Source: Candidatus Magasanikbacteria bacterium RIFCSPHIGHO2_01_FULL_33_34 (lineage in GTDB: Bacteria; Patescibacteriota; Patescibacteriia; Magasanikbacterales; UBA922). From it: DNA of 64,000 nucleotides. How positions within the stretch are numbered: position 1 is the first letter of the stretch; every line of letters begins with the position of its first letter. The position numbers and the translations under genes were made by a program. This document shows positions 3,873 through 34,371 of the stretch, piece by piece. The notes beneath the pieces are model-generated. The model saw nothing but the letters and a program-made list of their open reading frames with translations, searched no databases and had not been told where the DNA came from. The stretch covers positions 31,770-95,769 of the forward strand of contig MFPS01000009.1 of the NCBI GenBank assembly GCA_001782825.1, written 5' to 3'.

Positions 3873-5297
3873 TTATAATGCTTTTCTCTTCTTAAATAAT
3901 ATAAATGGAGTTTTAATAAAAATTACCAAATCAATCCACAAACTCCATTTTTCAATATAAAAAACATCCAATCTCATTTCCTCTGCAAAAGTTAAGTCAC
4001 TCCTGCCTGAGATTTGTGCCAGTCCAGTAATTCCTGGCTTTAAAGACAATACATAACGATATTCACTTTCATATTTATCAACTTCTCTAGGCTGATGCGG
4101 TCTAGGACCCACAATACTCATACTTCCACCCAATACATTAAAAAACTGAGGTAATTCATCTATGCTCCAACGCCTTATAAATCTTCCAAATTTTGTTACT
4201 CTAGGATCATCTGTAATTTTATAAATTGGGCCATCTTTGATACTTTTTTCTTTTATTAAATCTTTTTCTCTCTCTTCAGCATGGACACCTTCTTCACCAA
4301 ATTGTTTTCCCGTACAATCTTTTTTATACATTGATCGAAATTTTAAAGTAAAAAACTTTTTACTCTTCAAACCAACTCTTTCATTTTTATAAATTATTGG
4401 TAATCCTGTTTCAAAAAAAATAAATACAGAAGTAAAAATCATTATTGGGCTCACAATTACAAGCACAAAAATACTCATAACAATATCAAAAATTCGTTTC
4501 AATATCCTTGCCCAACCTTCAAGAGGTGTCGAGCGCAACTCAACAATCGGTATTCCGGCTAATGGGCTTACACGCATATTTGATGAAAAAGTATCAAATA
4601 AATCTGCTGAATATTTAAAGACAATCTGATGTTCATTACAATATTTAATTGCTTGTAATGTTTCTGTCTCATGAGCACGAGGATTTGTAAAAATTATTTC
4701 ATCAACTTTTAGATTATGAAGTGTACTAATTGTAGAATTATCAAAATGCACAAACTGCCCCACTATCAAATAACCCATTTCTTTGTGATCTTTCAAAAAA
4801 TTAATTATTTCATCCGCCGATGTCCCATGATGTCCGATAACAACAATTTTTCTAGACCCTATACCCGCCTTATACAATCTCCTCTTAAAAAGACGCATAG
4901 CAATCCTACCCAACACCATATAAACTACCGCAAATACCCAACTAACTACCACCAAAAATCTAGAATCAAAAACTTGTTGTCTAAACATTACATACACAGC
5001 AACCAAAGCAAGACCCGATGAACAAGCAAAAATCACTTTTTGTAATTCTGGTAAAAGTTTTCTATTGGGATCAGTGGAATAAAGTCCGGCAAAAGCAAAT
5101 ATTATTATCCAGACAAGTGCAATCGGCAACACTAACGAGATATATTCATTTGCCGATATATCAAATATTACCGGTTTCCAATCTACTGCCCAATCACTAA
5201 AACGCAAATAATAGGCAGAAATAGCTGCAAACAACAACAATAATAAATCCACTGGAACTTGTATGGCAGTAATAAATAATTCAGATCTTTTCATCAT
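3873..5297 (-). CDS. Polyprenyl-phosphate sugar phosphotransferase (bacterial sugar transferase, WbaP/EpsL-like priming enzyme)
   Basis: Several N-terminal TM helices. C-terminal catalytic domain with KFRSM...GPRP...SLKPGITGLAQISGRSD, the hallmark of PF02397. Confidence 0.85.
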   Translation of the reverse strand: MMKRSELFITAIQVPVDLLLLLFAAISAYYLRFSDWAVDWKPVIFDISANEYISLVLPIALVWIIIFAFAGLYSTDPNRKLLPELQKVIFACSSGLALVAVYVMFRQQVFDSRFLVVVSWVFAVVYMVLGRIAMRLFKRRLYKAGIGSRKIVVIGHHGTSADEIINFLKDHKEMGYLIVGQFVHFDNSTISTLHNLKVDEIIFTNPRAHETETLQAIKYCNEHQIVFKYSADLFDTFSSNMRVSPLAGIPIVELRSTPLEGWARILKRIFDIVMSIFVLVIVSPIMIFTSVFIFFETGLPIIYKNERVGLKSKKFFTLKFRSMYKKDCTGKQFGEEGVHAEEREKDLIKEKSIKDGPIYKITDDPRVTKFGRFIRRWSIDELPQFFNVLGGSMSIVGPRPHQPREVDKYESEYRYVLSLKPGITGLAQISGRSDLTFAEEMRLDVFYIEKWSLWIDLVIFIKTPFILFKKRKAL

Positions 5298-5373
5298 AAT
5301 ATTTTGCTTATTATAGTTATATATTAGCCCAAAAAATACAATCAGTCAATTTTATTTTTTTATGAAAAACACT

Positions 5374-5404: not shown

Positions 5405-5806
5405 GCCATCTTGTTCATTATAAATGATCGCGTCACACTACTTGTGTGATGAGGAAAGTCCGAACTTCCTCTATTAAACCAGAAAAAATGTAGCGGGTAA
5501 TACCCGTCGGTGTACTGGTGACAGTACATTAGGGACAGTGCCACAGAGACTATACTAGTCCTAATTTATTAGGATAAAACGTGAAAAGAGTATGGAAGTT
5601 TTTATTCTTAAGACAAAAGCTACTATACTTCCTCCGCTATCCAGCGGGGGACGGTAAACCCTACATGGGAGAAAGAGCAGCGTTCTAATTTATTAGTTCG
5701 AAAAGTTAGCTCGTTTGAACTAAATAGCAATATTTAGTCTAGAGAAATGATCATTGCTTGATTTATCAAGTTACAAAATTCGGCTTACTGTAATGAACAA
5801 GATATA
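5405..5806 (+). ncRNA. rnpB: RNase P RNA (bacterial type A)
   Basis: Conserved P4 strands GAGGAAAGTCCGAAC (5') and ACAAAATTCGGCTTA (3'). Internal GGGTAATACCCG, CCACAGAGAC and GGTAAACCC motifs. P1 helix: 5408-5420 ATCTTGTTCATTA pairs with 5791-5803 TAATGAACAAGAT. Confidence 0.9.
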
Positions 5807-7199: not shown

Positions 7200-7287
7200 T
7201 GGTGCTCAGGAGAAGACTCGAACTTCCACAGGCATTACGCCCACAGGCCCCTCAAGCCTGCGTGTCTACCAATTTCACCACCTGAGC
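7200..7287 (-). tRNA. tRNA-Leu (anticodon GAG), class II with long variable arm, CCA encoded
   Basis: The reverse complement reads GCTCAGGTGGTGAAATTGGTAGACACGCAGGCTTGAGGGGCCTGTGGGCGTAATGCCTGTGGAAGTTCGAGTCTTCTCCTGAGCACCA. The 7-bp acceptor stem pairs. Anticodon stem CAGGC/GCCTG with loop TTGAGGG. T-arm GTTCGAGTC. Confidence 0.85.
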
Positions 7288-16268: not shown

Positions 16269-17984
16269 TTACATTTCTTTAACTGTACTTATACCCAAAA
16301 GATATAGGCCTTTGGTCATAACAATATGCACTGATTTTATTATCTCAATTCTAAACTTTTTATCCTCATTCTCTGCCTTTAGTATAGGCAATTCATGATA
16401 AAAATTATTAAATAATTGCGCAACTGAAAATAAATACTGAGCAATTTTTGATGGATCGTGATTATCACAAGCTATTTTTATTATATCATTAAACTCAGCT
16501 AATTTCATTAATAATTGCTTTTCAATACTATCAATATTTTTTGGCAACACATTTTTTTTCTTGAATAATTTTTTAAAAAAGTTTCTACTTCCTGCTTTAT
16601 CCAAAATACGATTGATCCTAGCCACAATATACATAAGATATGGCCCACTATCTCCTGACAAACTGACAGACTCTTCCAAATCAAAAACTATATCGTTGTG
16701 TACTCCAGTCTTGAGAAATGAATATTTGAGCGCGCCCAATGATACTTTTTCTGAAATGAATTCTTTATTTTTAATATCACTTTCCTCCATTATTCCCAAT
16801 ATTTTTTTATTGATATCATTTATCAGATCTTCTGCCAAAACTACTTGCCCACTCCTAGAGCTCATCTTTCCACTCTTTAAACTCACCCAACCAAAAGCCA
16901 AATGACTTTCTTTGCCACGAGAATTGGGTAAAGTTCGCTCTAATACTTGAAAAATAACTCTTAAATATTCTGTTTGTTCACGAGCAATAACATGAATAAT
17001 TTTATCTGGATTAAATTCCTTAAATTGTAGCTCTGCCAAAGCCAAATCTTTAGCTTCATAAGTTGGCAAACCCATACTACTTAGAAAAACCCTATCATGA
17101 AGACCTTGGGTACTACCTCTGTAAATTATCGCCCCTTCACTCTCTGCAAACAAATGTTCAATCAAGAAATTTTTTACTATGCCAATAGCTCTCTCAAAAA
17201 CTTCTGACTCAAAAAATAACCGATCAAAATGTGTATCCAATTTAATATAAATTTTATCAAAATATTCCAAACTCCAAGCTCTAGTCTCCCCATATATTTC
17301 TTTTATACTTTTATCTTGCTTATAGATTTTAGCATTGATATCTACTATTTCTGCTTTGGATTTTTCATCACTTTCAAATGCCTTGGCGCCATCAGCATAA
17401 GCCATTCCTAAAAACTGGACTTTTTCCTCAACAGACGAATGTTTGAGACTATCATATTTTTCCTTATTTCTAATAATTGCCCAAATAGCTTTGGCAATAT
17501 GCATCCCTACATCTCCTTGATAATTTACTCTCACAACATTATAACCACACATTTCCATTATACGCGACAAACTCTCACCCGTTATAGTTCCACGCAAATG
17601 CCCAATATGAAATGCTTTGTGTGTATTTGGTTGAGCATATTCTATCAAAACTTTTTTATTTTTTTTCTCTTGTTTTCCATAATCTGGTGTAATTGAGCCT
17701 AATATTTTTTCTGCAAGCAAACTACTATTTAAATAAAAATTAACATAAGGTCCAACAGCTTCTACTTTATCCAAAATATCAATCTCAGCTATTTCCTTCT
17801 GTAAATCTTCTACCAAAATTTTAGCAGATTCGGCTGGATTCAAATTCAATTTCTTGGCATAATTGAAACAAGCAAACGCAAACTCACCCATCTCTGGTTT
17901 GGGCGGTGTAACCAATTCAATACTACCAGTTACCCCAGCAGAATAAAGCGCTTTGATTAATTGTTGTTTCAGAGAACTCAACAT
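16269..17984 (-). CDS. argS: Arginyl-tRNA synthetase
   Basis: Class I HIGH motif PNTHKAFHIGHLRG, ArgRS N-terminal add-on domain and anticodon-binding C-terminus, 571 aa. Confidence 0.9.
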   Translation of the reverse strand: MLSSLKQQLIKALYSAGVTGSIELVTPPKPEMGEFAFACFNYAKKLNLNPAESAKILVEDLQKEIAEIDILDKVEAVGPYVNFYLNSSLLAEKILGSITPDYGKQEKKNKKVLIEYAQPNTHKAFHIGHLRGTITGESLSRIMEMCGYNVVRVNYQGDVGMHIAKAIWAIIRNKEKYDSLKHSSVEEKVQFLGMAYADGAKAFESDEKSKAEIVDINAKIYKQDKSIKEIYGETRAWSLEYFDKIYIKLDTHFDRLFFESEVFERAIGIVKNFLIEHLFAESEGAIIYRGSTQGLHDRVFLSSMGLPTYEAKDLALAELQFKEFNPDKIIHVIAREQTEYLRVIFQVLERTLPNSRGKESHLAFGWVSLKSGKMSSRSGQVVLAEDLINDINKKILGIMEESDIKNKEFISEKVSLGALKYSFLKTGVHNDIVFDLEESVSLSGDSGPYLMYIVARINRILDKAGSRNFFKKLFKKKNVLPKNIDSIEKQLLMKLAEFNDIIKIACDNHDPSKIAQYLFSVAQLFNNFYHELPILKAENEDKKFRIEIIKSVHIVMTKGLYLLGISTVKEM

Positions 17985-17985
17985 A

Positions 17986-19356
17986 TTACTTTATTTTCAC
18001 AAAAAATCTTTTACCTTTTTGGACAATATCGCCTGATTTTACTTGAACATCAATTTTTAAAACTTTTTCATCATTGATTTTTACTCCACCATCATCAATA
18101 GCACGACGAGCTTCTGAGGTACTTTTGACAAATCCAGCTTCTACCAATACTGATACAATGTCTTTTTCTTTTGGTGATAATTCCATCATGCTATCTGGCT
18201 TGTCTTTATTCTGGATTACTTTGACAAAATATTCCTCACCTTTTTTTCCCGATTCTTCACCCAAAAATGCTTTGGTTATTTCATAAGCCAATTTCATTTT
18301 TAAGTCACGCGGATCTGCATCCTTAAATTCTTTTTCTATTTTCTTTACTTCATCCATCCCCACATTAGTACAAAGTTCAAAACCACGCACAATCATATCA
18401 TCAGCCCAAGACATAACTTTCCCATACATTTCTTCAGGTTCATCGTTAAGTGCTATCATATTACCCTCACTCTTGCCCATTTTCTTGCCAGACGCATCAA
18501 CCAAAAGTTTTGTAGTCAAAACAAATTTTTCTTTTCCTTTCATTTTCTTCATTAATTCTCTTCCGGCTAACATATTAAAAGTCTGATCATTGCCCCCAAC
18601 TTCTCCATCTACATCCAGTCTAACGCTGTCATAAGCCTGCATTACTGGATACAAAAACTCATGTAAATATATTGGTTTAGGAGATGTAAAAATTGAAAGT
18701 TTTTTTTCATTATTATTGCTATTAAGCATTTCCTCAACTGTTCTACCACATTTAGAGCACTTTGTAATTTTTGGAAAATCAACACCTTCTGATGTCGTAG
18801 AATTATCAGATAAAGTTGAATATGGTTGGGTAAATACATTATCACAAAAAATACATTTTATCTCTCCCCTATATCTTCTTTCAAACATATCTCTTTCTAA
18901 CATTCTTTGTACAGTAAACTGAGAAGTAAGGTCTATAACATTAGCAAAACTCATCTTTTTAAACCACTCACTATTATATTTGATTTGTGCTGAATTTTTT
19001 CCTTTGAAATTCAAAATGAGCGAAGCTTGTTCCTTATAATTTTTACAATTTTCCAAAACCTGATCTCTTGTTAATACTTGTCTGGCTGATGTTTTGTCAG
19101 TCGGATCACCAATCATACCTGTAAAATCCCCTATCAACATGATAATTTTATGCCCTAAATCCTGAAATTGTCTTAATTTCATCATGGTAATACCATGACC
19201 AATATGTAGAGTCGGCGCAGTCGGATCATAACCGGTATACAGGGTAAGCTGTTCAGTACTTTTTAATTTTGATTCCAAAAACTCTTTATTGGGGTAGATG
19301 TTTTCTACACCTCGCTCCAAAAGTTCATTAATTTTTTGTTGGTCAGTATTTATCAT
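17986..19356 (-). CDS. tyrS: Tyrosyl-tRNA synthetase with an internal Cys4 zinc-ribbon insertion of about 60 aa
   Basis: YTGYDPTAPTLHIGH (HIGH), KMGKSEGN (KMSKS), C-terminal S4 domain. Insert is CIFCDN...CSKCGR. Confidence 0.88.
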   Translation of the reverse strand: MINTDQQKINELLERGVENIYPNKEFLESKLKSTEQLTLYTGYDPTAPTLHIGHGITMMKLRQFQDLGHKIIMLIGDFTGMIGDPTDKTSARQVLTRDQVLENCKNYKEQASLILNFKGKNSAQIKYNSEWFKKMSFANVIDLTSQFTVQRMLERDMFERRYRGEIKCIFCDNVFTQPYSTLSDNSTTSEGVDFPKITKCSKCGRTVEEMLNSNNNEKKLSIFTSPKPIYLHEFLYPVMQAYDSVRLDVDGEVGGNDQTFNMLAGRELMKKMKGKEKFVLTTKLLVDASGKKMGKSEGNMIALNDEPEEMYGKVMSWADDMIVRGFELCTNVGMDEVKKIEKEFKDADPRDLKMKLAYEITKAFLGEESGKKGEEYFVKVIQNKDKPDSMMELSPKEKDIVSVLVEAGFVKSTSEARRAIDDGGVKINDEKVLKIDVQVKSGDIVQKGKRFFVKIK

Positions 19357-19371
19357 ATTATTATTTATTTA

Positions 19372-19736
19372 TGTCATTCCCGCGCAGGCGGGAATCTAGT
19401 TTATTTGCACAAATCATTCCAATTTGGATTATTTTTTTCAATTAATTTAACCTTCCATTCTCTATTCCATTTTTTCATTGCTTTCTCTCTTTTTATAGCC
19501 TCCTCTATATTAACATAATCTTCATAATAAACTAATTTATCTACTCCATATTTTTCTGTAAAACCTTTTATAACTTTATTTTTGTGTTCTAATACTCTTC
19601 TAGTTAATTCATTCGTCACCCCTATATACAAAGTACCATTTCTTTTACTTGCTAATATATATACATAATAAGTTTTTATCATATTACTGGATTCCCGCCG
19701 GAGTTTATCCCCGTGTAGACGGGGGCGGGAATGACA
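19372..19736 (-). mobile_element. Mini selfish element: GIY-YIG nuclease ORF flanked by GC-rich hairpin-forming terminal inverted repeats, inserted in the tyrS-valS intergenic spacer
   Basis: Left end TGTCATTCCCGCGCAGGCGGGAAT (19372-19395), itself a perfect 8-bp hairpin. Right end ATTCCCGCCGG...GGCGGGAATGACA (19691-19736) forms a 9-bp hairpin. The termini are inverted copies (TGTCATTCCC / GGGAATGACA). The element fills the gap between tyrS start (19356) and valS stop (19738) exactly. Confidence 0.65.
19401..19682 (-). CDS. GIY-YIG nuclease family protein (UPF0213/YhbQ-like, 93 aa)
   Basis: YYVYILASKRNGTLYIGVTNELTRRVLEH matches GIY-(10)-YIG-...-R...E. Confidence 0.85.
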   Translation of the reverse strand: MIKTYYVYILASKRNGTLYIGVTNELTRRVLEHKNKVIKGFTEKYGVDKLVYYEDYVNIEEAIKREKAMKKWNREWKVKLIEKNNPNWNDLCK

Positions 19737-19737
19737 T

Positions 19738-22398
19738 CTACATCAAACTTTCTAATTGTTTTTTTAATTTTTCTAATTTTGTTTCTGCTTCTGCCAATTT
19801 TTTCTTTTCTTCTTCTACCACTGCTTTGGGCGCATTGTCTACAAAACCCTTGTTTGCCAATTTGCTGGTTTGTGCTTTGACATACGGTTCAATATTTTGT
19901 ATTTCTTTTTGCAAACGAGCTTTTTCTTTTTCTAAATCTACTGCACCAGATAAGTCTAAATATACTTCATATCCACCAGCTACAAATCCAACCATATTTT
20001 CAACTCCAGATTTTTCATTATTGACATACAAATTATCCAAACGAGCCAATGCGCTAATAATTTTATTATTATCTTTTACCAATTCTACATTTTTGCCAAA
20101 AATATGCGCATTAATTTTTTTAACTGGTTCAATTTTATTTTCTGATCTAATCATGCGTATTTGTTCTACAATATCTTTAATTGCCAAAAAATCAACATTT
20201 ATATCAGTCCTTTCAAAATCGCTAGGCTTGTGAACAAAACTAGGCCATTTCTCAATCATCAATATCTCATTCTCCCCATAAACCTCTGTCCAGATTGCTT
20301 CGGTTACAAATGGCATAAATGGATGCCAAAGTTTCAAAATTGTATTTAAAATATAATTTAATATTTCACTCTTGTCGCTTTCAACTTTTGAAATTTCCAA
20401 ATACCAATCAGCCAAATCTCCCCAGGTAAAGTCTCTTAAATTTTCCCCAGCAAATGAAAAATTAAAATTTGCAAAAGAATCCTCTACTAAAGATTGTATA
20501 TTTTCCAAAGATTCTAAAATCCATTTATCAGCTAAAGTTTTTGCTTTTGGTTTTTTACAATCTACTTTTTGTTCATCAATATTCAACAACATAAATCGTG
20601 AAATATTCCAAAGCTTATTGGTAAAATTGCGAAAACCAGCAATTTTTTCCTCAGACAATTTCATATCATTGCCGGATGTACTACCCAAGAGCAATGACAA
20701 ACGAGTCGCATCAGTACCATACTTCTCTATCATATCTAGTGGATCAATAATATTCCCCAAGCTCTTGCTCATTTTCTTACCAGTTTCATCACGCACCAAA
20801 CCATGCAAATACACTTTTTTAAATGGAATTTCTCCCAAAGTATAGGTAGTCATCAAAATCATACGAGCCACCCAAAAAAACAAAATATCATAACCAGTTT
20901 CCATAACTGAAGTTGGGTGATATTGCATATCAGGAGTATTTTCTTCTGGCCAACCAAGTGTAGAAAAAGTCCACAGACCTGAGCTAAACCAAGTGTCTAA
21001 TGTATCTGAATCTTGTACCCAACCATCACCAGCTGGTGCTTCTAATCCAACAAAAATTTCTTCATTTTTATACCAAACAGGAATCTGATGACCATACCAA
21101 AGCTGACGAGAGATACACCAATCACGCAAATTATCTATCCAATGAAAATAAGTTTTTTCAAATCTCTCTGGAATAATCTCTATTTGTTTATTCTTTACTA
21201 CTGTTTGCATCAACTCTTTTAAACTTACTTCTTGCCCATCTTTTACGCCATCAATTTTGGACTTTTCTAATTTGAATTTTTTATTTACATCTACAAACCA
21301 TTGTAATTTTGGCAAAACTTCTACTACATCTCCAAACCTATCAGAAGTACCAACATTTTGTATTATGTCTTCTTCTTTTTCTAATAATCCTTTTTCTTTA
21401 AGCTCTGCAACTATTTTTGCTCTTGCCTCTACTACACTCAAGCCTGCAAATTTACCACCTTCATTTGAAATCTTGCCATCCTCGCCAATTACTTTTATCA
21501 GTTCAAGATTATGTTTCTGAGCCATTTCATAATCAGTCATTGAATGTGCTGGCGTTACACCAAGCGCGCCCGTTCCAAAGTCAATTTCTACTGCCTCGTC
21601 ACCAATAATTTTTAGTTTCAAACTTTGACCCAAAAAATCAATATCAAAAACTTTGTCTATATATTTTTTGTATCGTTTATCCTTTGGATTCACTGCCACA
21701 GCCGTATCACCCAGTTTTGTCTCTGGTCTGGTAGTGGCAATAGTAAATGGGAAGTTCTCTGAATATTTAAAGGTATATAATTTTGCCTGTCTTTCTAAAT
21801 GTACAATTTCATCATCAGACAATGTACTTTGGCCTTTGGTAGACCAATTGACTGCTCTAAATTTCCTATAAATCAACTCATCGTCCGACATTTTTTTAAA
21901 AACTGTCCGCACTGCCAAATTTCTTTTTGCGTCCAGTGTAAAAGCTTCTCGACTCCAATCCAAAGATGCACCCATTTTTTTGCATTGATTGACAATCGTA
22001 TCATGAGACTCCTTCGCAAATTTATTTACTTCTGCCAGAAATTTTTCTCTGCCTAAATCATGTTTACTCTGACCAGTTTCTTCCAACAGTTTTTTTTCTA
22101 CTTTGGCCTGAGTAGCAATAGCAGCATGATCAGTACCCGGCAACCACAAAGTTTTGTCACCTTTCATTCTATGATATCTGACCATTACATCTTGGATAGC
22201 CAACATTGCCGCATGGCCCATATGCAAATTACCTGTTACATTTGGTGGAGGCAAAACAATTGAAAAAGGTTTAGCTTTTGCGTCTGTTACACCTTTTTCA
22301 ATACAAATATCAGGATTAAAAAATTCGCTGTTTTCCCAGCGTTTGTAGGTATCATTTTCATATTTTTTAGGATCGTAAGCCTTTTCTAATTCTCGCAT
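19738..22398 (-). CDS. valS: Valyl-tRNA synthetase
   Basis: PPPNVTGNLHMGHA (HIGH), KMSKSLGN, C-terminal coiled-coil. Start placed at MRELEKAYDPKKYE; the ORF track extends to 22431. Confidence 0.92.
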   Translation of the reverse strand: MRELEKAYDPKKYENDTYKRWENSEFFNPDICIEKGVTDAKAKPFSIVLPPPNVTGNLHMGHAAMLAIQDVMVRYHRMKGDKTLWLPGTDHAAIATQAKVEKKLLEETGQSKHDLGREKFLAEVNKFAKESHDTIVNQCKKMGASLDWSREAFTLDAKRNLAVRTVFKKMSDDELIYRKFRAVNWSTKGQSTLSDDEIVHLERQAKLYTFKYSENFPFTIATTRPETKLGDTAVAVNPKDKRYKKYIDKVFDIDFLGQSLKLKIIGDEAVEIDFGTGALGVTPAHSMTDYEMAQKHNLELIKVIGEDGKISNEGGKFAGLSVVEARAKIVAELKEKGLLEKEEDIIQNVGTSDRFGDVVEVLPKLQWFVDVNKKFKLEKSKIDGVKDGQEVSLKELMQTVVKNKQIEIIPERFEKTYFHWIDNLRDWCISRQLWYGHQIPVWYKNEEIFVGLEAPAGDGWVQDSDTLDTWFSSGLWTFSTLGWPEENTPDMQYHPTSVMETGYDILFFWVARMILMTTYTLGEIPFKKVYLHGLVRDETGKKMSKSLGNIIDPLDMIEKYGTDATRLSLLLGSTSGNDMKLSEEKIAGFRNFTNKLWNISRFMLLNIDEQKVDCKKPKAKTLADKWILESLENIQSLVEDSFANFNFSFAGENLRDFTWGDLADWYLEISKVESDKSEILNYILNTILKLWHPFMPFVTEAIWTEVYGENEILMIEKWPSFVHKPSDFERTDINVDFLAIKDIVEQIRMIRSENKIEPVKKINAHIFGKNVELVKDNNKIISALARLDNLYVNNEKSGVENMVGFVAGGYEVYLDLSGAVDLEKEKARLQKEIQNIEPYVKAQTSKLANKGFVDNAPKAVVEEEKKKLAEAETKLEKLKKQLESLM

Positions 22399-22473
22399 AT
22401 TTTTAACTTCAGTAATACTAATTTTATACAATTTTGGCTAATAAATCAAGTTTTTATTAATTTTTATGAAAAA

Positions 22474-30267: not shown

Positions 30268-31263
30268 TTATTTCACTATCTTCACTGCCATCTCAACCAA
30301 ACGATTGGCATAACCCCATTCATTGTCATACCATGCGATTACCTTTACCAAATTTCCATCAAGCACTTTGGTCAAAGTCAAATCTACAATGGCTGAATGT
30401 TGATCACCTACAAAATCACTAGAAACCAATGGTTCATCTGTTGTAGACAATATTCCTTTCAAATAAGTTTTCTCGGCTCGTTTGAAAGCATTGTTTATAC
30501 TTTCAACAGTAGCCTTATCTTTCAAAAGAAATACAAAATCAGTCAATGAAACAGTAATTGTCGGCACACGAATTGCCATACCATCAAACTTGTCAACTAA
30601 CTCTGGTATAACCCTAGTCACAGCTAAGGCTGCGCCCGTTGAAGTCGGAACAATATTTTGTGCAGCTGCTCGTGCTCTGCGCAAATCTTTGTGTGGGCCA
30701 TCTTGTAAATTCTGATCAGCCGTATATGAATGCACAGTTGTCAAAAAACCTTTTTCAATACCAAATTTTCTATTGATTATGTCCACTACAGGCCCAGCAC
30801 AATTGGTAGTACAAGATGCAATGTCAATTATATTTTGGTTATTATAACTATCACTATTTACTCCACAAACAAAACCTTGCACACCATCGCCTTTGGATGG
30901 AGCCGAAATAATAACTTTTTTTGCTCCGGCTTTTAAATGCATTCCCGCTTTTTCTTTGGTTCTAAAAGCTCCAGTGCATTCCAATACCACATCAACACCC
31001 AGCTCTTTCCAAGGAAGTTTAGCTGGTTCTTTTGTTGCATATACTTTTATTTTCTTTCCATTTACTATCAGATGATTACTGTCCGAAGTCACTTTTTTGG
31101 TATATCTTGAATATGCCGTATCATATTTGAGTAAATGCGCAATAGTTTTGGTATCCGTCAAATCATTAATTGCAACAATTTCAATATTTTTATTATTAAC
31201 AGCAACTTTAAAAGCATGTCTACCAATCCTCCCAAACCCATTTATTGCTAACTTAATTTTTGA
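30268..31263 (-). CDS. gap: Glyceraldehyde-3-phosphate dehydrogenase (type I)
   Basis: KLAINGFGRIGR Rossmann N-terminus and active-site SCTTNC. Start chosen at MSKIKLAING. Confidence 0.92.
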   Translation of the reverse strand, partial: SKIKLAINGFGRIGRHAFKVAVNNKNIEIVAINDLTDTKTIAHLLKYDTAYSRYTKKVTSDSNHLIVNGKKIKVYATKEPAKLPWKELGVDVVLECTGAFRTKEKAGMHLKAGAKKVIISAPSKGDGVQGFVCGVNSDSYNNQNIIDIASCTTNCAGPVVDIINRKFGIEKGFLTTVHSYTADQNLQDGPHKDLRRARAAAQNIVPTSTGAALAVTRVIPELVDKFDGMAIRVPTITVSLTDFVFLLKDKATVESINNAFKRAEKTYLKGILSTTDEPLVSSDFVGDQHSAIVDLTLTKVLDGNLVKVIAWYDNEWGYANRLVEMAVKIVK

Positions 31264-34345: not shown

Positions 34346-34371
34346 AAATTCCCTTTCGGGAATTTTTTATT
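34346..34371. terminator. Bidirectional rho-independent terminator (AATTCCC-tttc-GGGAATT flanked by A and T runs), directly after the tsf stop
   Basis: Palindromic hairpin with A-run 5' and T-run 3' on the plus strand. Confidence 0.6.

Follow-up and report, generated by a model that had tools for sequence, protein, structure and literature searches.

An ssn nuclease gene between inverted NTS hairpins in the valS-tyrS spacer of a Magasanikbacteria genome

Organization of the valS-tyrS spacer

In the 64-kb stretch of Candidatus Magasanikbacteria DNA that we analysed (the window), argS (16269-17984), tyrS (17986-19356), a short ssn open reading frame (19401-19682) and valS (19738-22431) all lie on the minus strand. 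The start of tyrS at 19356, the stop of valS at 19738, the 93-aa GIY-YIG open reading frame and the two hairpins that bracket it are where a sequence-only reading of this DNA had placed them. Ssn nucleases are single-domain GIY-YIG proteins of ~94 aa (CDD cd10448, GIY-YIG_unchar_3) that recognise a hairpin repeat in single-stranded DNA (ssDNA) only (Chenal et al., Nat Commun 2025, PMC11893778). This repeat is called NTS in Neisseria, where its consensus is CGTCATTCCCGCGMAVGCGGGAATCYRG and cleavage occurs about 3 nt 5' of it; the general form of the repeat, SRM, follows the pattern HGTCWYN(0-2)YYVSBRHN(0-5)WNVSBRGN(0-2)RNCYNB (PMC11893778). The features of the locus are as follows.

19354-19371, minus strand: tyrS start codon and the 15-nt leader between the cassette and tyrS, from the sequence
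19372-19736, minus strand: whole NTS-ssn-NTS cassette, TGTCAT...ATGACA, 365 bp, within the valS-tyrS spacer and with inverted termini
19372-19399, plus strand: canonical NTS/SRM hairpin TGTCATTCCCGCGCAGGCGGGAATCTAG, 3' of ssn on the tyrS side, from its match to the NTS consensus (27/28)
19401-19682, minus strand: ssn, an intact gene for a 93-aa single-domain GIY-YIG nuclease, from PF01541 and alignment with an SsnA ortholog
19686-19737, minus strand: long-loop NTS variant, 5' of ssn on the valS side, ATGTCATTCCCGCC-[CCCGTCTACACGGGGATAAACTCCG]-GCGGGAATCCAG
19738-19740, minus strand: valS stop codon TAG, with the cassette end 1 nt away
Expected sequence of the valS-tyrS junction without the cassette: GATGTAGATAAATAAATAATAATATG

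Deletion of 19372-19736 in silico leaves a 16-nt AT-rich valS-tyrS spacer, comparable to the spacers of relatives (4-35 nt). The outer ends of the cassette had been described as inverted copies of each other, and the TGTCAT and ATGACA termini are indeed part of an inverted repeat that is perfect over 13 nt (ATGTCATTCCCGC at 19371-19383 and GCGGGAATGACAT at 19725-19737); the inner ends form a 14-nt inverted repeat that is 93% complementary. The contrast between GC-rich hairpins and AT-rich flanks also holds, with a G+C content of ~60% in the hairpins against 34% in the window and 24% in the ssn open reading frame. Elsewhere in the window, a bacterial class A RNase P RNA (156 bits; 5412-5803, plus strand) and a tRNA (7203-7287, minus strand) lie in or beside a G+C-richer part at 4-8 kb (0.34-0.45 vs ~0.30 on its flanks).

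A further repeat at the locus, the 16-nt direct repeat TAATATGATAAA[T/A]ACT, spans the start codons of tyrS and ssn (19345-19360 and 19671-19686, minus strand). The pattern has two perfect matches in the window, where 0.84 would be expected even with up to 2 mismatches. We considered this repeat as an insertion footprint and set it aside. The MxKxYY N-terminus is found in Ssn homologs and M(K)(I/V)NT in TyrS relatives (loci L010, L013, L077 and L206), and TAATATG also occurs 3' of the upstream hairpin of another ssn locus (L090). Because the N-termini of tyrS and ssn both look native to their families, the repeat probably reflects chance or microhomology.

The two flanking hairpins

The hairpin on the tyrS side, downstream of ssn, has an 8-bp stem (ATTCCCGC/GCGGGAAT, 19376-19383/19388-19395) and a 4-nt loop. 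It agrees with the Neisseria NTS consensus at 27 of 28 positions, is the sole match to the published SRM pattern within the window, and folds at -13 to -13.7 kcal/mol with a z-score of about -4 (-13.7 kcal/mol and z = -4.1 for 19372-19399). The core palindrome of the Neisseria dRS3 element, ATTCCC-N8-GGGAAT, is literally present at 19376-19395; dRS3 is this 20-bp palindrome alone, whereas the window has an oriented 28-nt NTS with a 5' GTCAT extension, linked to ssn.

The hairpin on the valS side, upstream of ssn, reads ATGTCATTCCCGCC-[24 nt]-GGCGGGAATCCAG on the minus strand (19737-19686). Its 9-bp outer stem (ATTCCCGCC/GGCGGGAAT, 19691-19699/19724-19732) encloses a 24-nt loop with a nested CCCCG/CGGGG stem (19709-19713/19720-19724). 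This hairpin shares the GTCATTCCCGC...GCGGGAATCCAG arms with the canonical copy; it fails the published SRM pattern in loop length and loop-closing bases, and it folds less stably (z of about -2). The long-loop variant also flanks ssn homologs at three other loci (L143, L154 and L168), with its ATAAACTCCGGCGGGAAT 3' half conserved, and across loci the pairing of the nested stem is kept while its sequence and loop differ. This long-loop, nested-stem hairpin is a second type, which could widen the range of Ssn/target pairs sought for ssDNA tools.

Both motifs of the stem are concentrated well above expectation. ATTCCC-N(4-30)-GGGAAT occurs 3 times in the 64 kb against 0.03 expected, and ATTCCCGC occurs 5 times against 0.63 expected, with 4 of the 5 at the cassette. 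A copy of ATTCCCGC at 30941 and an ATTCCC...GGGAAT at 34348 are isolated and have no NTS context, and we dismissed them as chance. The window contains no NTS copies beyond the two of the cassette, and no repeat expansion is seen in it. An Rfam search at the locus returned nothing above threshold. We rejected a match to FtrB (RF02748, Francisella sRNA B) at 19352-19449 on the plus strand, which scored 31.4 bits vs a gathering score of 66. This match is carried by an NTS-like hairpin inside the FtrB consensus (guCauuCcCGCGuAGGCGgGaauCUC), and the Francisella sRNA family may therefore overlap an Ssn target repeat.

The ssn protein and the history of its junction

Pfam reports only GIY-YIG (PF01541; residues 5-77, E = 5e-15, 55.9 bits vs a cut-off of 22.6) and T5orf172 on the 93-aa protein, which has a single domain. 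Pairwise BLASTP against the 94-aa N. gonorrhoeae SsnA ortholog gave a gapless alignment with 58% identity (E = 7e-38), and tblastn against the whole of PLSDB gave E = 8e-27; the published criterion for an Ssn homolog is E < 1e-10 to Neisseria SsnA (PMC11893778). The gonococcal protein is encoded at L208:1489-1773, from N. gonorrhoeae chromosomes labelled as plasmids in PLSDB, and we took it as the presumptive ortholog of NMV_0044 from its length and its residues Y6, Y17 and E64. These are the residues that were mutated in N. meningitidis SsnA (Y6A, Y17A and E64A; PMC11893778), and they align with Y8, Y19 and E66 of the window's protein, which retains the residue at each of the 36 positions that are invariant among 20 aligned homologs. 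Because of this homology to SsnA, the alignment of the catalytic Y/Y/E residues and the match of the hairpin to NTS, the 93-aa protein is, by sequence, a member of the Ssn family. The sequence-only reading had framed the nuclease through homing endonucleases; in the family where we place it, the characterised members cut only ssDNA, beside the hairpins that flank the gene.

A TyrS scan of species-representative genomes yielded 80 loci. The gene order valS-tyrS(-argS) is kept in about 20 Patescibacteria loci, none of which encodes an Ssn. Three of them (L010, L013 and L077) have a valS-tyrS spacer of 4 nt, and four others (L017, L026, L031 and L040) one of ~35 nt or less; in L021, the nearest species-representative genome in GTDB (TyrS about 71-77% identical), it measures 12 nt. 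A 4-nt spacer is also present in L205, which encodes the closest non-conspecific TyrS (71%) in a collection of 5.8 billion proteins. Since the syntenic valS-tyrS junctions of relatives lack the cassette, comparison of these junctions indicates that it is an insertion and entered, as a single block, what was once a tight junction in this Magasanikbacteria lineage. The sequence-only reading had proposed that a cassette bounded by inverted repeats colonised an operon spacer, and had suggested looking for empty orthologous spacers; the junctions of all relatives examined are empty of it. An ssn gene conserved at the orthologous position would have spoken for an ordinary gene, and ssn is absent from every orthologous junction examined.

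Within the species, the cassette DNA is identical in 9 of 9 conspecific contigs compared, and where contigs encode an identical Ssn or TyrS protein, the junction is occupied in every listed place. An exact-pattern search of metagenome contigs (valS end + 0-30 nt + tyrS start) gave no match to an empty allele in the same species, and no presence/absence polymorphism of the cassette was found within it. The cassette is now fixed in this species, being present and sequence-identical in every contig seen, and the identical contigs and lack of an empty allele give no sign of current activity.

The TyrS of the window has 456 aa, vs 394-397 aa in most Patescibacteria relatives, whose alignments split at an insert of ~60 aa (residues ~165-225; window ~18680-18865, minus strand). 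The insert carries two CxxC pairs (EIKCIFCD...CSKCGRT) and may be a zinc-ribbon insertion.

The three closest relatives of ssn (79-85% aa identity) all lie in contexts other than valS-tyrS: in L090 the gene is flanked by gmk and rplS, in L091-L093 by a class-I aminoacyl-tRNA synthetase (aaRS) gene and comEC, and L094 has it at another site. Two of these loci (L090 and L091) have the layout of the window, and their DNA similarity to it is confined to TGTCAT...ATGACA. In L094 the upstream hairpin is absent and two are found downstream, and only the downstream boundary is readable. At L091-L093, an 80%-identical ssn cassette lies directly upstream of comEC (Competence and DUF4131 domains). The comEC gene belongs to the DNA-uptake machinery and encodes the channel for incoming ssDNA. 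Given the role of SsnA in transformation, this adjacency is suggestive, as a single case.

We scanned 80 further metagenomic homologs (56-72% aa identity) with a simple finder for GTC[AT][CT] plus a perfect stem; of these, 73 have at least one flanking hairpin and 51 have hairpins on both sides of the gene. In the published survey, SRM lies near 71% of Ssn homologs and on both sides (NTS-ssn-NTS) in 42% (PMC11893778). Upstream hairpins are on the gene strand at a ratio of 71:13 and downstream hairpins are inverted at 73:19, which turns the GTCAT ends outward; as background, the rest of these loci has 0.17 hairpins per kb, and 834 kb of TyrS loci have 0.05 per kb. Conservation around the 80 homolog loci falls to background past the T before GTCAT. 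No target-site duplication or target motif was found: outside 53 upstream and 48 downstream hairpins, the information content of the adjoining sequence is ~0. Further NTS-ssn-NTS units lie on contigs of IMG/VR and on large replicons of rhizobia and sphingomonads. In N. gonorrhoeae (L208:1350-1880, NZ_CP119140.1), the NTS copies nearest to ssnA face inward, with GTCAT toward the gene, which is opposite to the outward hairpins of the window and of most environmental homologs.

Units without an open reading frame are found as well. Just downstream of tyrS in another locus (L043:5117-5277) lies a 161-nt outward-facing NTS...NTS unit, nested in a second TGTCAT...ATGACA inverted-repeat element (TGTCATTGCGGGCAAC...TTCTCGCAATGACA, 5075-5327); it has the appearance of a MITE-like element derived from the ssn cassette. 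The valS-tyrS spacers of two Patescibacteria-like genomes contain GC-rich ORF-less inserts, one of about 215 nt (TGTCATCCCGACCG...CGGTCGGGATGACG, L015:5745-5965) and one of about 95 nt (TGTCATTGCGAG...CTCGCGATGACA, L023:4580-4650). Both have TGTCAT...ATGAC(A/G) termini, and these inserts suggest that the valS-tyrS junction has been recurrently colonised by related hairpin elements.

Proposed mechanism and alternative readings

Together, these data make it very likely that the locus is an Ssn-family cassette, in which ssn is bracketed by two cognate NTS/SRM hairpins with TGTCAT facing outward, and that it was inserted as a block. By homology with SsnA enzymes, the ssn protein would bind its hairpin only when the DNA is single-stranded. 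Besides the stem sequence, it would recognise the 5' GTCAT and 3' C, and it would hydrolyse the strand on the 5' side of the hairpin, ~3 nt away. On the plus strand, this predicts a cut in the tyrS leader (near 19368/19369), and on the minus strand one in the valS stop codon (near 19740/19739). Because the hairpins are inverted with GTCAT outward, both predicted cuts are just outside the cassette, one per strand. Ssn cleavage, combined with host repair or recombination, could then move the cassette; movement would need these host functions because GIY-YIG enzymes cut DNA by hydrolysis and have no joining activity. The ssDNA cleavage by the window's protein and its cut positions are predicted from the characterised enzymes, and a part of Ssn cleavage in moving the cassette is a hypothesis.

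The gene family, the target repeat, the NTS-ssn-NTS layout and the idea of a mobile element, raised as a hypothesis in the Discussion of the original study, have been known since 2025 (PMC11893778), and the locus is no new kind of system. It resembles the N. meningitidis SsnA system in its single GIY-YIG domain of ~94 aa, its flanking NTS hairpin (27/28) and its NTS-ssn-NTS arrangement (PMC11893778). It differs in its host, a CPR/Patescibacteria metagenome-assembled genome where the published hosts are Pseudomonadati, in having two NTS copies in the window without expansion, and in a flank that is a long-loop variant outside the SRM pattern. The Ssn family is hereby extended to CPR/Patescibacteria, with an unusually clean natural case: a single gene with its two hairpins forms a precisely delimited insertion of 365 bp, and the orthologous site is empty in many relatives. 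What our analysis adds is the evidence from occupied vs empty junctions, the rule of outward orientation, the recurrent long-loop variant, and ORF-less derivatives in the same type of junction. Sharp boundaries, outward orientation, the lack of target-site duplications and the ORF-less derivatives give comparative support to the movement of NTS-ssn-NTS as a unit.

In architecture only, the cassette is like REP/RAYT systems (TnpA_REP, IS200/IS605-like), in which a small nuclease gene lies between oppositely oriented copies of the hairpin that its product recognises as ssDNA, target-site duplications are lacking and ORF-less hairpin derivatives exist. RAYT proteins are HUH enzymes with a covalent tyrosine intermediate, whereas the Ssn fold is that of a hydrolytic GIY-YIG nuclease; a HUH Y1 transposase domain (Y1_Tnp, PF01797) was not found in the ssn protein by Pfam, and the window shows no REP-like expansion. 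A bolder version of our proposal, which we hold only tentatively and consider unlikely, is that NTS-ssn-NTS units represent a new class of autonomous mobile element, mobilised by the cuts of a hydrolytic ssDNA nuclease just outside their termini, one on each strand. A nuclease of ~93 aa would then mobilise both a cassette that makes no target-site duplication and its ORF-less, MITE-like derivatives, and the recurrent landing sites would be tight CPR operon junctions (valS-tyrS, tyrS-argS, aaRS-comEC and gmk-rplS). To our knowledge, GIY-YIG nucleases have no strand-transfer chemistry, and a role as a transposase would be unprecedented.

The gene could instead have been domesticated, with Ssn now restricting incoming NTS-bearing ssDNA from natural transformation, conjugation or ssDNA phages, as in Neisseria, and the flanking hairpins being either a legacy of the gene's arrival or autoregulatory sites. 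Such a role is compatible with the same cassette origin and differs in the present-day function only; we regard it as possible but doubtful. It would accord with the ~5-fold reduction by SsnA in transformation with NTS-bearing DNA in N. meningitidis (PMC11893778), with an intact open reading frame in a fixed cassette that shows no variation among the contigs sampled, and with the close relative found directly upstream of comEC. However, such a system would find little to act on in this genome, with two NTS in 64 kb, both at ssn; no PADLOC defence model matched the locus, and the distribution of the gene among relatives is patchy.

That patchiness also weighs on the idea of an ordinary conserved housekeeping gene of the YhbQ/UPF0213 type, with hairpins acting as REP-like mRNA stabilisers or terminators, which is the least probable reading that we considered and which the sequence-only reading had already discounted. 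Proteins of the UPF0213 / YhbQ-YazA group are similar in size and have a single GIY-YIG domain, the nearest solved structures show distant similarity (1zg2, E = 6e-5; 1ywl, E = 3e-4), ssn is oriented with the operon, and there is one terminator-like call at 19376-19395 on the plus strand. Yet the gene is missing at every orthologous junction examined, the protein is far nearer to SsnA (58%) than to UPF0213, and the hairpins have no U-tracts on the transcribed strand. Furthermore, conservation across phyla extends from the structure of the hairpin to its sequence, which is that of the Ssn target. We know of no association of UPF0213 / YhbQ-YazA genes with hairpins. Hardly more credible is a free-standing GIY-YIG homing endonuclease of the Seg/I-TevI type, which would cut the double-stranded DNA (dsDNA) of empty valS-tyrS junctions and spread by gene conversion, with the hairpins incidental. 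Like I-TevI and SegA-G, the locus has a GIY-YIG catalytic domain and looks like a selfish insertion between conserved genes, a position that is typical of such endonucleases; a PHROG family of GIY-YIG homing endonucleases (E = 1.7e-4) and TIGR01453 (28.1 bits, below its cut-off of 56.05) match weakly. The I-TevI and Seg enzymes have DNA-binding modules at the C terminus, cleave dsDNA at a cognate allele and have no flanking hairpin inverted repeats, whereas the window's protein has only 93 aa and no DNA-binding domain (NUMOD/IENR1/HTH), its close relatives occupy unrelated sites with no single cognate site, and its hairpins are oriented and family-wide. Moreover, characterised Ssn members lack activity on dsDNA and RNA (PMC11893778), and no GenBank phage record matched in a search for ssn units. 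An Ssn-family cassette inserted as a block is the reading that we prefer over these alternatives.

A separate observation concerns a contig of the same species that lies inside the genome region of the window (L001:2778-5936). It carries two tandem 524-aa paralogs of cofactor-independent phosphoglycerate mutase (iPGM_N and Metalloenzyme domains), which adjoin the genes for enolase and PGK; one copy is present as two open reading frames in contig L003.
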